Shown here piece by piece: positions 48,638-54,560 of a DNA stretch of 64,000 nt. The DNA comes from Promethearchaeati archaeon. GTDB taxonomy: Archaea; Asgardarchaeota; Heimdallarchaeia; Heimdallarchaeales; Heimdallarchaeaceae. The stretch lies in assembly GCA_013166775.1 (NCBI GenBank), contig JABLTJ010000015.1:1-64000 (forward strand). The letters run 5' to 3'. A model generated the notes under the pieces. It did not search any database. It was not told the DNA's origin and was given only the letters and a program-made list of their open reading frames with translations. The position numbers were made by a program, and so were the translations under genes. Numbering within the stretch: position 1 is the stretch's first letter; each line of letters begins with the position of its first letter.

Positions 48638-49237
48638 ATGACTAGCTTTATCCGAAGAACTATTCAAGCAATTCGTAGGAAACTTGGCTATCCTGAAGTA
48701 TCGATTTTAGTAATGGGAGATGATATCCCAGCAACAAGAAATCGTGTTCTTCTTATTAGGTCTAGTACTTCGCTAAATGAATTCATCATTGACAGTGTTT
48801 TAACCAAACTACCCTACTCTGACAAATTTAAGTTTAAGCAGAAACAGTTTGAGCCTTTTGAAAGTGTTCTTTATCTTATTGATGCAACCAAAGAAGAAAT
48901 GATTAAACATGAAAGAAATTATTTCTGGGAAAAAATCGTATGGGATGAGAAAACACAGAAGCTTCCAATTGCTGTATGTGCTTATAATACTAATCTTCAA
49001 GGAGCCTTAACTAGAGGCGAATTAATAGAAAATATGTCCTTAATAAGGCTAACAGATCGTTTATGGAACCTTTTTGAAGTTCCAGATGTACCTTCTATAA
49101 TCACAGCGATGAAATGGTTAAAAAGAATAATTCATATGGGTTATGTAAAGTCTTGGGAAGAGAAAGAGAAATTATTGGTAAAAATTAAACCAATTCAAAT
49201 TCAAATACCTTCAGAAGAAGAAGAAGATATACAATAA
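48638..49237 (+). CDS. Arf-like pseudo-GTPase
   Basis: N-terminal amphipathic helix, ILVMGDD strand, VLYLIDAT, YNTNLQGALTRGELIENMSLIRLTDRLW and AMKWL align by eye with Arf1. G1, G3 and G4 are lost. Confidence 0.7.
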   Translation: MTSFIRRTIQAIRRKLGYPEVSILVMGDDIPATRNRVLLIRSSTSLNEFIIDSVLTKLPYSDKFKFKQKQFEPFESVLYLIDATKEEMIKHERNYFWEKIVWDEKTQKLPIAVCAYNTNLQGALTRGELIENMSLIRLTDRLWNLFEVPDVPSIITAMKWLKRIIHMGYVKSWEEKEKLLVKIKPIQIQIPSEEEEDIQ

Positions 49238-49254
49238 AAAAAGAGGAACTTACT

Positions 49255-50805
49255 ATGTCACTCACTATTGAAAAATTAATTAAAGATGGATATACAGGAT
49301 TTTCTGTAAGATCAATTCTGATGAACCCAGAATTTCGTGAGAGAGTTATAAAAGATGTTAGTGTAAGAGGTAATATTACAGGTAAAAATCTGGTAATGGA
49401 TAAATTGGCGGTTGGTGGAAAAGTACTCCTAACAGGTCCAACAGGTGAAGCAAAATCACTTTTTGCAAGAATTCTTTTGGATCACGTTGTTAGAGAAATG
49501 AACAATTTTAAATATCATATCGAAGGTTGCCCATTCTTAGAAGATGCGGGTTATATTAAGGATGTAATTGATAATTATGCATCTAATCCCTTTGCAGGAA
49601 TAAGAGTAATGCAATCTCTTTGTCCTTATTGTAGGCATAACATCGAGAAAATTTTGTCAAAAGATGGTACTTCAGTACAACTTGATAATACTAACAGCAT
49701 GCTTGAAATTACACCTAAAGAAGTTGTCGACCGTTTAGGTAAGCTTGGTGCAGCTAAAACTCTTGTAAGGAGAGCACAGTTAGATCCAAGAACTGATCCT
49801 GAAAGCTTATACATGCTATTGGCAGGTGTTGAAAACCTGGAGGAATTATTTGGTAAAGATACATCCACTACATATGCTGCTACATCTCACAAAGTTGGTG
49901 TTCTATCCCATGGTTTTATAGTGGTAAATGAAATACAAAGACTTCCGTTAACCCTTTTAGAATCTCTTATGGGTTTTCTAGAAGAACCTATGGGAATAAA
50001 ATACAATATACAAGGAGAACCAGTATACATTGATGGTGCAGTTCTTTTCACTTCCAATGCTCCATTGACTGTCTTTGGAGAAGAAAGTCAACCTATTATT
50101 AACCGTATACCTGAAGTATTATGGGCCGCTCGTGCTGTTGAAAGTAGAGAACAAATCATCAGAGATATGTTCGAAGAACAAATAATTCTATCAAGAAGAA
50201 GCATTACAGCAAATCCATCAATAATCCAACTTCATGAATTGGAAAAAGAAACCACTGATTTTGTCAGTAGATTAGCAGTAGATTTCTTAGCATATTTGGG
50301 GAACAATTCGTTACCTGAATCGTTGAAGATCAGGGGATTAAGATCAGAAAGCAGAGTAGAAAGAAATGATTTCTACTCCGGTCTTGATGAAATTCATGAT
50401 CCACAAAGAAATCCACACATAGATTTACGTACTATGAATAATATCATTGGAGAAACTGTACTTCTTCAGGCTAGAGAGGCCGATGAAGAAGCAGTTAACG
50501 TAATAACTTTAGAAAGGTTACGAGAAACTATGGGTGCATTTGATATACCTGCTTCAATGGTTAATGATGCTTTACAACAAATCAAAATACTGTTGCGAAC
50601 CTCTATAAAAGAATCAGAAGTTTCTATTAGTGTTCAGGACATCTCTGAAGATATCTCAAAGATGAAAGCTCTCAGTGATTCTGAACTTGCAAATCTAGTA
50701 GTTAAGTTCGAAGGATTGGACAAATACAAAGAGAATATTAGAACTACAATAATTGAAAAACTCAAACCATCTTATGAGCAATTGCTAAAAGTAGACTACA
50801 TTTAG
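49255..50805 (+). CDS. ChlI/MoxR-type AAA+ ATPase
   Basis: Walker A GPTGEAKS, GCPF...CPYC insertion, Walker B FIVVNE, sensor FTSN and arginine finger INRI. Confidence 0.82.
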   Translation: MSLTIEKLIKDGYTGFSVRSILMNPEFRERVIKDVSVRGNITGKNLVMDKLAVGGKVLLTGPTGEAKSLFARILLDHVVREMNNFKYHIEGCPFLEDAGYIKDVIDNYASNPFAGIRVMQSLCPYCRHNIEKILSKDGTSVQLDNTNSMLEITPKEVVDRLGKLGAAKTLVRRAQLDPRTDPESLYMLLAGVENLEELFGKDTSTTYAATSHKVGVLSHGFIVVNEIQRLPLTLLESLMGFLEEPMGIKYNIQGEPVYIDGAVLFTSNAPLTVFGEESQPIINRIPEVLWAARAVESREQIIRDMFEEQIILSRRSITANPSIIQLHELEKETTDFVSRLAVDFLAYLGNNSLPESLKIRGLRSESRVERNDFYSGLDEIHDPQRNPHIDLRTMNNIIGETVLLQAREADEEAVNVITLERLRETMGAFDIPASMVNDALQQIKILLRTSIKESEVSISVQDISEDISKMKALSDSELANLVVKFEGLDKYKENIRTTIIEKLKPSYEQLLKVDYI

Positions 50806-52229: not shown

Positions 52230-53796
52230 AACCGAACTTGGGGACATAGTAAAAACCTATCTAAAAGCTAGAGAGGATTTTGAGCATCTAATTGGAGGAT
52301 CTCCAGAAAATTACCGAATTCTACTTTTTATCAATCCGGAATTACATATATCTATTAACAGAGTAATGGAAATTACTGGAACACCACAAGCGATTCTTAC
52401 AGCAGAACAGATAACTAACCTAAAATCAGCTAGAATCAGTGATTTTCTTCCAATAGGAAAGGAAACAATATATAATTCTCTACCAACTCTAATTTACCTA
52501 TCTGTTCCATCCTATGATCTTAATGAAGAACAAGAACTAACTCTGCGCGTGATGTTAGTCCATGCTTTGGCGCACGCTTACATGAACGAAAAAACTGAAT
52601 CTAATTCTGCAAGAACTCTCGCACAATTATATCAAATTGATGTCATACTGAAGGAATTAATGACAAATAATGTTTTCAAATTAAATCAAAATTCAGCAAG
52701 CAAGCATGTTTGGGCTTGGCAATATTTTCAAGATTTGATAGGTGTTATTCGCTTATTTACTGAATGTGGTGTAGAAGATTTTTACACTCCTCCTGAAAAT
52801 GCAAGGAAATATACACTCTTCAATAATTTCTCCATTGAAGCGATAAATCTCCTTTCTGAACGAGCTAAATTATCTAGAAGAAAGCACCTTCATGAACTCA
52901 TTGATGAAGGTTTTGCTCATTATGTTCAAATGAAGGAGTTGGAATATTTACTTGATAAAGGGGAATATAAACTTGTTAAAAATGAAGAAGGAAAACAAAT
53001 AAAATACCCAAATGATTTGAAAGCATTTCTCGCTCCACCTATAGGAGAAATCAGTGTTGCTATGATTGACAGATTGACAACAAAAATCGATGATGAAAAA
53101 GAAATGTTTGAAAAGTTATTTTCTTATAAATCTGATTTAGAGTTTTTACAAGAATTTACTTGGGATGAAGTAAAGGATTTGCTTGCAGTTAACAAAAATC
53201 TTCACTCAGAACATGTAGTTGAAAGCTGGCATTCTTCTAAGAGCAGATGGACCGATATTTGGTCAGTTTATGCTTATGGTTGGAGAATGATTGAAGAGTA
53301 TACTAGAAAAATATACAGAAAGAAATATACCAATTTTGGTCAACTCTTAGATGATAATCCTGCAATAACGAGTAAGGGATATGTAAGAGTAGATGAAAAA
53401 AAAGTGTATGTGTTTGAGGTAAATGATTATGGAGTTGGAATTGATCAATTATTGATACTTCATAATCATATGTCACTGTATAGAGACGATTTTCGCACAA
53501 TTTTACCTGCTTTTGCGGATATAATTGTTTTTAAGAAAATCGGAGGAATACATGTTGCAACCTTATTTGCAGTTCATAAAACTAAACATCAACCTCTATC
53601 ACCATACAATATACCTGTTATAACAAGAGCAGTTCAAGTTACAAAACGAAAAGACGCATATAAATTTGATTTAGACGAGGAAGAAGAGGATAAAATCGAT
53701 GTGAGTAGAGTAGACTACAATTATTTAAGAAAACTCACACAACCACAAAGAGGTGCTATTAGTTATCTTATCAAAGAGGGGATGTTCGAATTATGA
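52222..53796 (+). CDS. Gluzincin-like protein lacking the catalytic Glu
   Basis: MLVHALAHAYM (HExxH with E to A) and downstream DEGFAHYV third-ligand motif. Overlaps both neighbouring genes. Confidence 0.65.
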   Translation: MLKTELGDIVKTYLKAREDFEHLIGGSPENYRILLFINPELHISINRVMEITGTPQAILTAEQITNLKSARISDFLPIGKETIYNSLPTLIYLSVPSYDLNEEQELTLRVMLVHALAHAYMNEKTESNSARTLAQLYQIDVILKELMTNNVFKLNQNSASKHVWAWQYFQDLIGVIRLFTECGVEDFYTPPENARKYTLFNNFSIEAINLLSERAKLSRRKHLHELIDEGFAHYVQMKELEYLLDKGEYKLVKNEEGKQIKYPNDLKAFLAPPIGEISVAMIDRLTTKIDDEKEMFEKLFSYKSDLEFLQEFTWDEVKDLLAVNKNLHSEHVVESWHSSKSRWTDIWSVYAYGWRMIEEYTRKIYRKKYTNFGQLLDDNPAITSKGYVRVDEKKVYVFEVNDYGVGIDQLLILHNHMSLYRDDFRTILPAFADIIVFKKIGGIHVATLFAVHKTKHQPLSPYNIPVITRAVQVTKRKDAYKFDLDEEEEDKIDVSRVDYNYLRKLTQPQRGAISYLIKEGMFEL

Positions 53797-54560
53797 TGGA
53801 TTTCTTTAGAGGTTTATCAATCAATAAAAAAATAAAAAGCAACGAACCTTTAGATCGTGCCTATTACGCTTTATTTTTACAGAAAAAAGGAAAAGCTAAA
53901 TCTATTAAAAAGCTTCTACCTCTTCTTGAGGACTCAGATTGGAACGTGAGAAATGCAGCAGTATCAACGGTTGTTTATCTAGTAGAAAAGTTACCTGAAA
54001 TAAAGGAAAACGTTCTAAATCATCTTCACAAACTTGTTGATGAGAGCACCTTGGCTGTTAGACTCTCAATATTGGAAGCCATTGGTCAGTTGAAAGATTA
54101 TGCATCAAAGCCTTATCTTATTAAGATTTTAGAAGAAAGTGATTATGATTTACAGTATGCCGCTATAAGAGCCATTGGATATCTGGATGATGTTGATGTA
54201 CTATTCCCATTAGAAAACGTCGTTTATGCACTTGATTATATCACTAGAAGAGCAGCAATTCTATCTGTTGTAAGAATTTCAGAGTCTGCAAACGAAGAAA
54301 CAAGGATAGAGAAATTAACACCCCATATCCATATAATAATAGAATCTTATCTTGAGATAGAAAAACTAGGAAACTTGATTTGCGGTATAATGGATTTTGG
54401 TGATTCAGATCAGTTTCCTGTAATGAAAGGTTATGCTGAATCAGCTATAGTCAAACTTGAAGGGCTTATAGAGCAAAAGGATTATAGTGTAGAATTATAT
54501 CAAAATTTTGCTAAACTAATCTTTCCAATATACTTCCCAATAGATGAAAACTTAATTTAG
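53793..54560 (+). CDS. HEAT/PBS-lyase repeat protein
   Basis: LEDSDWNVRNAAV, VRLSILEAIGQL, LQYAAIRAIGYL and TRRAAILSV. Confidence 0.88.
   Translation: MMDFFRGLSINKKIKSNEPLDRAYYALFLQKKGKAKSIKKLLPLLEDSDWNVRNAAVSTVVYLVEKLPEIKENVLNHLHKLVDESTLAVRLSILEAIGQLKDYASKPYLIKILEESDYDLQYAAIRAIGYLDDVDVLFPLENVVYALDYITRRAAILSVVRISESANEETRIEKLTPHIHIIIESYLEIEKLGNLICGIMDFGDSDQFPVMKGYAESAIVKLEGLIEQKDYSVELYQNFAKLIFPIYFPIDENLI

Follow-up and report, generated by a model that had tools for sequence, protein, structure and literature searches.

Examination of a 64,000-nucleotide (nt) stretch of DNA from a Promethearchaeati archaeon of the family Heimdallarchaeaceae (assembly GCA_013166775.1, contig JABLTJ010000015.1, positions 1 to 64,000; referred to here, at its full length, as the window) revealed a run of five co-oriented open reading frames (ORFs), g1 to g5, all on the plus strand and separated by gaps of 17 and 38 nt or overlapping by 8 and 4 nt (Table 1). 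A preliminary description of this DNA had reported this arrangement, together with a TATA-like element, ttaaata, upstream of g1, and both proved exact. It had further read the five products as, respectively, an Arf-like pseudo-GTPase, a ChlI/MoxR-type AAA+ ATPase, a vWA protein, a dead zincin and a HEAT-repeat protein. In 11 orthologous upstream regions drawn from the genus and the family, the TAAA core of the ttaaata element was invariant, with the flanking CATAACA..ATTCA and the short leader preceding the ATG being conserved as well. Judging from these aligned regions, conservation of the putative promoter region is far above chance.

The g2-g3-g4 core

The product of g2 belongs to the MoxR/ChlI/MCM (helix-2-insert) superclade of AAA+ proteins. 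At this level, the ChlI/MoxR-type label holds; the nearest family, however, proved to be PrkA/YeaG and not MoxR. The g2 alignment was compared by hhalign with an alignment of four PrkA sequences, namely, from Escherichia coli and from plasmids of Bacillus thuringiensis, Thermomicrobium roseum and Novosphingobium. This returned a probability of 92.3% (E 5.5e-7, 343 columns), with the alignment holding in register at the Walker A motif, YxIxGCPxxE[DE], CPxC, the Walker B motif, the sensor-1 Asn and the Arg finger. When the g2 profile was extended by two distant relatives, these values became 94.4%, E 9e-8 and 449 columns; the extended profile reached PrkA column 570 of 631, and no Pfam match to the C-terminal PrkA domain (PF06798) was seen. 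As controls, for which MoxR was the only family used, g2 was compared with 11 Asgard MoxR proteins (57-62%, E ~1e-4) and PrkA was compared with MoxR (0.5%). The distant g2 relative P0045 gave 90.5% against PrkA and 0.5% against MoxR, and scored 18.1 bits against Pfam AAA_PrkA, below the cut-off of 25.

Some 158 residues separate the Walker A motif from the Walker B motif of g2, including a Cys-containing insert that aligns with PrkA YAIKGCPMHE[DE]P and T. roseum CPWCR. The Walker B motif of PrkA, like that of g2, is without Asp (MEFVEM), with the motif reading LILINE or ILILEE in distant g2 relatives. By these comparisons, g2 is best called a shortened PrkA-like AAA+ protein, lying between PrkA and MoxR in profile space. 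Two other interpretations of g2 motifs were considered and rejected. The Ala in the Walker A motif does not point to a dead ATPase, given how canonical MoxR proteins are the same in this respect (GVPGVAKT, 11 Asgard MoxR proteins); therefore, only the Asn of the Walker B motif is unusual in g2. Likewise, the insert is not a conserved Zn ribbon, since one genus (L040, L046) carries other residues in place of the Cys. The g2 profile found just 20 proteins among 1.84 billion representatives. In searches of the PDB, the profile found nothing at E 1, the single sequence retrieved nothing useful and the predicted model gave no Foldseek match at E 0.001 or better. The ranking of RavA and BchI offers no argument against PrkA, because the PDB searches contain no PrkA structure.

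The vWA assignment of g3 was borne out, with 11 of 15 family members matching VWA_2 (best E 5.2e-5) and with the 30 nearest clusters by Atlas language-model features all being vWA families. Among PDB sequences, the g3 profile weakly matched the TRAP vWA domain (E 0.014). D243, S245, S247, T321 and D352 were invariant in 15 orthologues, and the metal ion-dependent adhesion site (MIDAS) takes the DxSxS form in both g3 (DMSQS) and E. coli YeaH (DVSGS). Comparison with DUF444 by hhalign, run without a vWA control, gave a weak yet co-linear match (18-21%, E 1e-3, ~340 columns).

No Pfam family matched g4, and the only 27 homologues found all came from Heimdall-group records. A predicted model of g4 (predicted local distance difference test (pLDDT) 78.9; predicted template modelling (pTM) score 0.81) assigns a gluzincin-like fold to the protein's N-terminal part. 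When this model served as query in a fold search of the ESM Atlas, no family other than those of SpoVR was represented in the 30 nearest models, with alignment spanning residues 5-520 (367 aligned, root-mean-square deviation 5.4, template modelling (TM) score 0.53 by query and 0.57 by target). Searched against the PDB, the model gave no Foldseek match at E 0.001 or better, and the single sequence yielded nothing useful.

The SpoVR motifs VINSxPCxAYL, LVxAH-x3/4-H..FF and NEGWATFWH find parallels in g4 as IYNSLPTLIYL, MLVHALAHAY and IDEGFAHY, respectively. A comparison by hhalign paired the DEGFAHY stretch of g4 with NEGWATF of E. coli YcgB, albeit without significance. Glu is found at the catalytic position in neither g4 nor the SpoVR family. 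The families in which g2 and g4 occur are labelled f1 (that of the window) to f4 and f6. H114, H118 and E229 of g4, the putative ligands, persist in f1, f4 and f6 but have been lost from f2 and f3, where the HALAH stretch reads HAFAK, QLLSM or YALAK. The earlier label of dead zincin is fair in terms of the predicted fold and the HALAH motif, with the nuance that the three ligand positions survive in the family of the window and are lost elsewhere; from the sequences, catalysis is unlikely to be a conserved role. That some lineages dispense with the zincin ligands argues against SpoVR-type catalysis as the conserved function. Relative to gluzincin metallopeptidases (M1, M32, M2 and M3, as well as inactive relatives such as TAF2), g4 differs in presenting Ala in place of the catalytic Glu, in its His-to-Glu spacing of 111 residues and in the loss of its putative ligands in two families; the Z score lies inside the range that the search tool calls common.

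The PrkA-YeaH-SpoVR module is found in bacteria, where it is widespread, and in some archaea, and the trio has been tied to sporulation and to survival of nitrogen and carbon starvation. As with PrkA/YeaG (SpdA), YhbH/YeaH (DUF444, PF04285) and SpoVR/YcgB (PF04293), the g2, g3 and g4 genes follow the order AAA+, MIDAS-vWA and SpoVR-like, and do so in overlapping frames. The canonical order prkA-yhbH-spoVR, with 8- and 4-nt overlaps, was seen on the T. roseum and Novosphingobium plasmids. Because the gene order matches, and with g2 aligning to PrkA across the insert that bears GCP and CPxC and across a Walker B motif without Asp, and g4 paralleling SpoVR in predicted fold and motifs, the core is read here as a variant of this module, rather than as a coat-like machine or a defence system. 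The g2-g3-g4 core is thus most likely, with a probability of about 60%, a new and highly diverged branch of the PrkA-YeaH-SpoVR module that comes with a predicted pseudo-Arf:HEAT adaptor. The addition of a pseudo-Arf and a HEAT protein distinguishes the Heimdall operon from the known module. Accordingly, the claim that this combination of genes had not been described stands for the five-gene set in the literature searched and does not stand for the core triad, the order of which is known. In six bacteria, yeaG, yeaH and ycgB are cofit at r > 0.7, and the three form one operon in most bacteria (10.1101/072470).

Several observations weigh against assigning the core to the PrkA-YeaH-SpoVR module. 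No sequence method ties g4 to SpoVR, with hhalign giving <1% (E 0.08-0.2) and Pfam SpoVR (PF04293) not matching; the fold link sets one predicted model against others that are likewise predicted, and the TM score is moderate. AAA_PrkA (PF08298) matched none of the 16 g2 orthologues at E 0.1, g2 is ~120 residues shorter than PrkA and the nearest g2 clusters by language-model features are ChlI/MoxR types. Moreover, sizeable hhalign probabilities arise between any two AAA+ families, and the PrkA alignment comprised only four sequences. In the case of g3, the Pfam threshold of DUF444 was not reached, and the nearest clusters carry VWA_2 and Rv0959_3rd (PF27098), not DUF444. When alignments of g2, g3 and g4 were compared by hhalign with the single E. 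coli YeaG, YeaH and YcgB sequences, no match was significant, as was also the case when a gammaproteobacterial SpoVR alignment, holding close relatives only, was compared with g4. Pfam searches detected no canonical PrkA, DUF444 or SpoVR in the genome from which the window comes, and SpoVR was not found above the cut-off in 201 Asgard genomes.

It is possible, if unlikely, that g2 and g3 instead comprise a generic MoxR/ChlI-type AAA+-vWA chaperone of the Rv0958/Rv0959 kind that matures one dedicated metalloenzyme or complex, with g4, g5 and g1 being lineage-specific subunits for client handling and with no specific kinship to PrkA-YeaH-SpoVR. Language-model features do suggest a pair of the Rv0958/Rv0959 type. 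In addition, g2 shares its superclade and an adjacent MIDAS-vWA gene with the MoxR-vWA and chelatase motors (RavA-ViaA, NorQ-NorD, CbbQ-CbbO, BchI-BchD and CobS-CobT), as well as, probably, the principle of target remodelling. However, PrkA outscores MoxR against g2, and does so over more columns, the Cys insert and Asp-less Walker B motif are common to g2 and PrkA, whereas MoxR reads LADE (DE where g2 reads NE), and the only relatives of g4 by predicted structure are SpoVR proteins. Moreover, g2 falls below the thresholds of both AAA_3 (PF07726, no match) and Mg_chelatase (PF01078, weak in 7 of 16 members, best E 0.02), and the genome already contains three canonical MoxR (AAA_3) genes (C79:22509-22901, C79:9505-9897 and C38:10078-10467), two of which share a contig, at a distance of 13 kb. 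A search of 101 Asgard genomes found no Mg_chelatase at E 1e-12, and no functional description was found in the literature on Rv0958/Rv0959 or on Asgard archaea with MoxR and vWA.

Support for treating g2, g3 and g4 as a unit came from two distant loci. In L054 (positions 101-10460; Logan SRR26786796, GC 57%), a very distant triad of 510, 456 and 505 amino acids (aa) appears in the same order, with the g2-like protein presenting a canonical Walker A motif (GPTGCGKS), an ILILEE Walker B motif and a GCP/CPGC insert. In L058 (positions 3894-10108; Asgard, NCBI GCA_046759345.1), a distant triad is split into two divergent units, one in which the g2-like gene lies beside a gene encoding a 171-aa multi-pass membrane protein, and a second comprising g3-like and g4-like genes and a gene encoding a membrane-anchored helical-repeat protein of 391 aa. 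Both triads are without g1 and g5. As the triad recurs without these genes in two distant lineages, the triad is considered as the core and g1 and g5 as lineage-specific accessories. The membrane proteins found in place of g1 and g5 in L058 are a hint, no more, of a link to the membrane. Following the triad in L054 are genes for three large proteins (730, 509 and 324 aa), none of which matches a Pfam family.

The g1 and g5 proteins

The g1 protein scored 22.8 bits against Pfam Arf (PF00025), just above the cut-off of 22.3, in its C-terminal half only, with 10 of 15 family members matching. A profile built from 15 orthologues matched Arl1, Arl3, Arf6 and solved Asgard Arf proteins in the PDB, again over the C-terminal half, with E down to 6.7e-10 (Arl1). 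At the same time, none of the 15 orthologues and 4 further family members contains GxxxxGK[ST], DxxG or NKxD. In the g1 of the window, the G1 position reads GDDIPATR, and the positions aligned with G3 and G4 read LIDATKEE and YNTN, neither of which is conserved in the family. Invariant instead are W97, W102, L124, L135, R137, D140 and W160, with R141 being nearly so. The description of g1 as Arf-like hence agrees with the profile matches, and its assignment as an Arf-derived pseudo-GTPase is, as far as sequence comparison goes, sound. Thus, g1 shares with Arf family GTPases, including Asgard ArfR (PDB 8OUK, 8OUL, 8OUM and 8OUN), an alignable C-terminal half and, in the window, an N-terminal amphipathic helix, but differs from these proteins in being without G1, G3 and G4 in every member. 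No earlier description of a conserved Arf-derived archaeal protein without every G motif was found in the literature. A survey of Asgard Arf proteins does not mention operons or vWA or AAA partners (10.1101/2024.02.28.582541).

In the window, the N-terminal helix of g1 shows a hydrophobic moment of 0.81, as compared with 0.72 for the 95th percentile of shuffled sequences. Values range from 0.45 to 0.81 within f1 and from 0.30 to 0.52 in orthologues from f3 and f6. As such, the label of membrane recruiter would apply at best to one family. Candidatus Heimdallarchaeum endolithica encodes, some 5 kb upstream of the operon, a complete 312-aa GTPase of the Arf family with a C-terminal extension (L032, positions 1488-2423; Arf E 3.8e-35).

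As previously proposed, g5 is a HEAT-repeat protein, matching Pfam HEAT_2 (E 4.8e-15) and HEAT (E 4.1e-9). Its profile matched alphaRep proteins with E down to 2e-41 and adaptin beta at just ~1e-6 over 50-70 residues, such that, from these profiles, the repeats are of the prokaryotic PBS-lyase type. When g1 and g5 were modelled as a complex, an interaction prediction score from aligned errors (ipSAE) of 0.78 was obtained, the best of three controls scoring 0.00. Of 80 solved complexes in a benchmark, 58 attained this mark, as did 2 of 110 mismatched pairs; these counts are only rough, with own alignments having been used. Across g1-g5 runs, at least 88% of contacts agreed, with partner pLDDT being at least 62. 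In the model, the g1 interface comprises residues 93-94, 97-98, 102, 108, 134, 136-144, 160, 163-164 and 167-168, and so coincides with the family-invariant W97, W102, L135, R137, D140 and W160, residues identified before modelling. The model thus supports, and does not demonstrate, binding of g1 to g5. Weighing against this part of the proposed assignment is the existence of solved Arf-solenoid complexes, such that the performance of the model may, in part, reflect memory.

It was earlier suggested that the five proteins may form a membrane-associated assembly and disassembly machine reminiscent of eukaryotic coat or trafficking systems, with an Arf-like protein recruiting HEAT, vWA and AAA+ components to membranes. 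This reading is quite improbable. The Arf descent of g1, the strongly amphipathic and basic nature of its N-terminal helix in the window, its predicted grip on a HEAT solenoid and the membrane proteins that flank the triad in L058 are all consistent with such a machine. Yet no g1 member retains the GTP switch, orthologues from f3 and f6 show a weak amphipathic helix or none, and transmembrane segments are predicted in none of the five operon proteins. Furthermore, the HEAT repeats are of the PBS-lyase type, with adaptin matches being short and weak, nothing ties g3 to Sec23/24 and, according to alignment with Arl1, the predicted g1 interface would lie around helices 3-5, away from the switch regions. 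The echo of coat machinery accordingly finds no support beyond Arf ancestry and the predicted contact between an Arf-like and a HEAT protein. The amphipathic N-terminal helix is confined to one family.

Distribution, descent and genomic neighbourhood

Contigs related to the window are labelled Candidatus Heimdallarchaeota, and the same family includes Ca. Heimdallarchaeum endolithica and Ca. Heimdallarchaeum aukensis. Single-copy g2 was present in 40 of 41 relatives, spanning four families of the order. A sample of 201 genomes of the phylum yielded g2 in these same four families and in all 3 genomes from one family of a sister order. The gene was detected in none of 10 genomes from a further family of the class nor, save for one weak partial match, in the ~160 other Asgard genomes sampled. 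The pattern of g4 is that of g2, with g4 being present in all but one sampled genome of f1 to f4 and f6, and with just four weak partial matches elsewhere, all in one genus. Identity of g2 was 83-94% within the genus, 68-73% within the family, 55-58% within the order and 51-52% within the class.

The order and strand of g2, g3, g4 and g5 were constant in every complete locus examined, these coming from four families of the order and one of the sister order, such that the linkage of these genes across Asgard genomes, on which the preliminary description had made its proposal depend, was indeed seen. The position of g1 is more variable. This gene adjoins g2 in f1, in most of f3 and in f6. In f2 and one f3 genus, it sits either on a separate contig or 2 kb upstream in the opposite orientation, and in f4 it is found ~5 kb downstream. 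The displaced copies are still present and still without a P-loop. Where g1 is not adjacent, genes encoding FKBP-type prolyl isomerases occupy the slot upstream of g2 (L040 6487-7917; L041 9791-10537), with L040 also containing a ParB_N-like gene. Because protein identity tracks phylogeny, the five genes are considered, on the sequence comparisons, to be one vertically inherited operon of Heimdallarchaeia. Such a pattern characterises a housekeeping operon and not a mobile or defence island.

The neighbours of the operon encode a NUDIX hydrolase, two pyridoxal phosphate enzymes, UvrB and UvrC, with no mobile-element genes among them (Table 1). The NUDIX gene, divergent from the putative operon promoter, is so arranged throughout the family (49-59% identity) and not in other families. 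Three small ORFs are kept 3' of the operon across the genus; the first is convergent and ends 1 nt from the g5 stop codon, and those of 69 aa are paralogous to one another. The UvrB-UvrC pair follows the operon within the genus and is found on its opposite side in two other genera of the family (L031 and L039). Searches of PADLOC and NCBIfam added nothing for g1-g4. That the operon encodes a vWA-MoxR ternary system for conflict or defence against viruses is extremely improbable: AAA+/vWA pairs do form the core of some described conflict systems and g5 gave weak PADLOC matches to HEAT-containing models (E ~1e-5), but g2-g4 matched nothing in PADLOC beyond a weak TRIP13 (E 0.0023), no effector domain is seen, the single-copy operon occurs almost throughout the clade, and its neighbours are of the housekeeping kind.

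Table 1. Positions of the g1-g5 genes, their motifs and the flanking ORFs in the window
Feature	Position	Strand	Remarks
Putative TATA-like promoter element ttaaata	48602-48608	+	Read in the sequence; 30 nt before the g1 ATG
g1	48638-49237	+	Predicted Arf-derived pseudo-GTPase, 199 aa
g1 N-terminal basic amphipathic helix (residues 1-17)	48638-48688	+	From hydrophobic moment
g1 patch MSLIRLTDRLW (residues 133-143)	49034-49066	+	Centre of predicted g5 interface
g2	49255-50805	+	PrkA-like AAA+ ATPase, 516 aa
g2 Walker A GPTGEAKS (residues 61-68)	49435-49458	+	G61, T63, E65 and K67 invariant; family GPTGEAK[ST]
g2 PrkA-type insert, YHIEGCPFLED (87-97) and SLCPYCR (121-127)	49513-49635	+	In register with PrkA
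g2 Walker B FIVVNEIQRL (residues 221-230)	49915-49944	+	Asn for Asp; N225 and E226 invariant in 16 orthologues; family hhhhNE
g3	50844-52229	+	vWA protein with N-terminal helical region, 461 aa
g3 MIDAS DMSQS (D243, S245, S247)	51570-51584	+	Invariant
g4	52222-53796	+	SpoVR-like, gluzincin-like predicted fold, 524 aa
g4 HALAH (residues 114-118)	52561-52575	+	HExxH position without catalytic Glu; parallels SpoVR AH-x3/4-H
g4 DEGFAHY (residues 228-234)	52903-52923	+	Parallels SpoVR NEGWATFWH; F231 invariant
g5	53793-54560	+	HEAT-repeat protein, PBS-lyase/alphaRep type, 255 aa
NUDIX hydrolase	48033-48551	-	E 2.1e-10
Small ORF	54562-54822	-	86 aa; no Pfam match
Small ORF	54893-55102	-	69 aa; no Pfam match
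Small ORF	55232-55441	-	69 aa; no Pfam match
UvrB-UvrC pair	55593-59368	+	655 and 600 aa; 5 nt apart

Proposed mode of action and significance

If the core is a branch of the PrkA-YeaH-SpoVR module, then the g2 ATPase ring and the g3 vWA adaptor may remodel or unfold client proteins, by analogy with the MoxR-vWA and chelatase motors; target remodelling is described for motors of the MoxR-vWA kind (PMC9976466, PMC13036017). The MIDAS site of g3 and the SpoVR-like cleft of g4 would serve to hold the clients. According to the complex model, g1 and g5 would form a constitutive heterodimer through the invariant Trp/Arg/Asp patch of g1 and the concave face of the solenoid, with g1, an Arf-derived protein, being presumably unable to bind GTP via any canonical motif. 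The pair might serve as a scaffold or targeting adaptor and, in Heimdallarchaeaceae, the amphipathic N-terminal helix of g1 might bring it to the membrane. By analogy with E. coli YeaG, renamed SpdA, on which the bulk proteolysis induced by starvation depends (PMC13684143), a physiological role in protein turnover or remodelling linked to stress or starvation is likely. We infer the five-protein assembly, the ATPase activity of g2, the client and the physiology from these parallels. The fuller proposal, namely, that a nucleotide-blind Arf fold permanently clamped to a small HEAT solenoid acts as the targeting adaptor of an AAA+/vWA/SpoVR-like turnover machine, and maybe binds membranes, is clearly unlikely on present evidence.

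The diverged and shortened archaeal version of the PrkA-YeaH-SpoVR module considered here shows which features are kept, namely, the Cys insert, an Asp-less Walker B motif, an intact MIDAS and a SpoVR-like scaffold. In vitro reports of protease and kinase activity in the module conflict. One report describes B. subtilis PrkA as an ATP-dependent protease (PMC9512850), and in another, PrkA of B. anthracis had negligible activity as a protease or a kinase in vitro (PMC13001217). The predicted constitutive grip of g1 on a HEAT solenoid, in turn, bears on the origin of Arf-effector pairing in the Asgard lineage. Were the nucleotide-blind Arf adaptor to prove real, it would offer a tractable handle on PrkA-YeaH-SpoVR biochemistry, and would represent, in the closest archaeal relatives of eukaryotes, a prokaryotic version of the pairing between Arf and a solenoid on which the coats of eukaryotes were later built.

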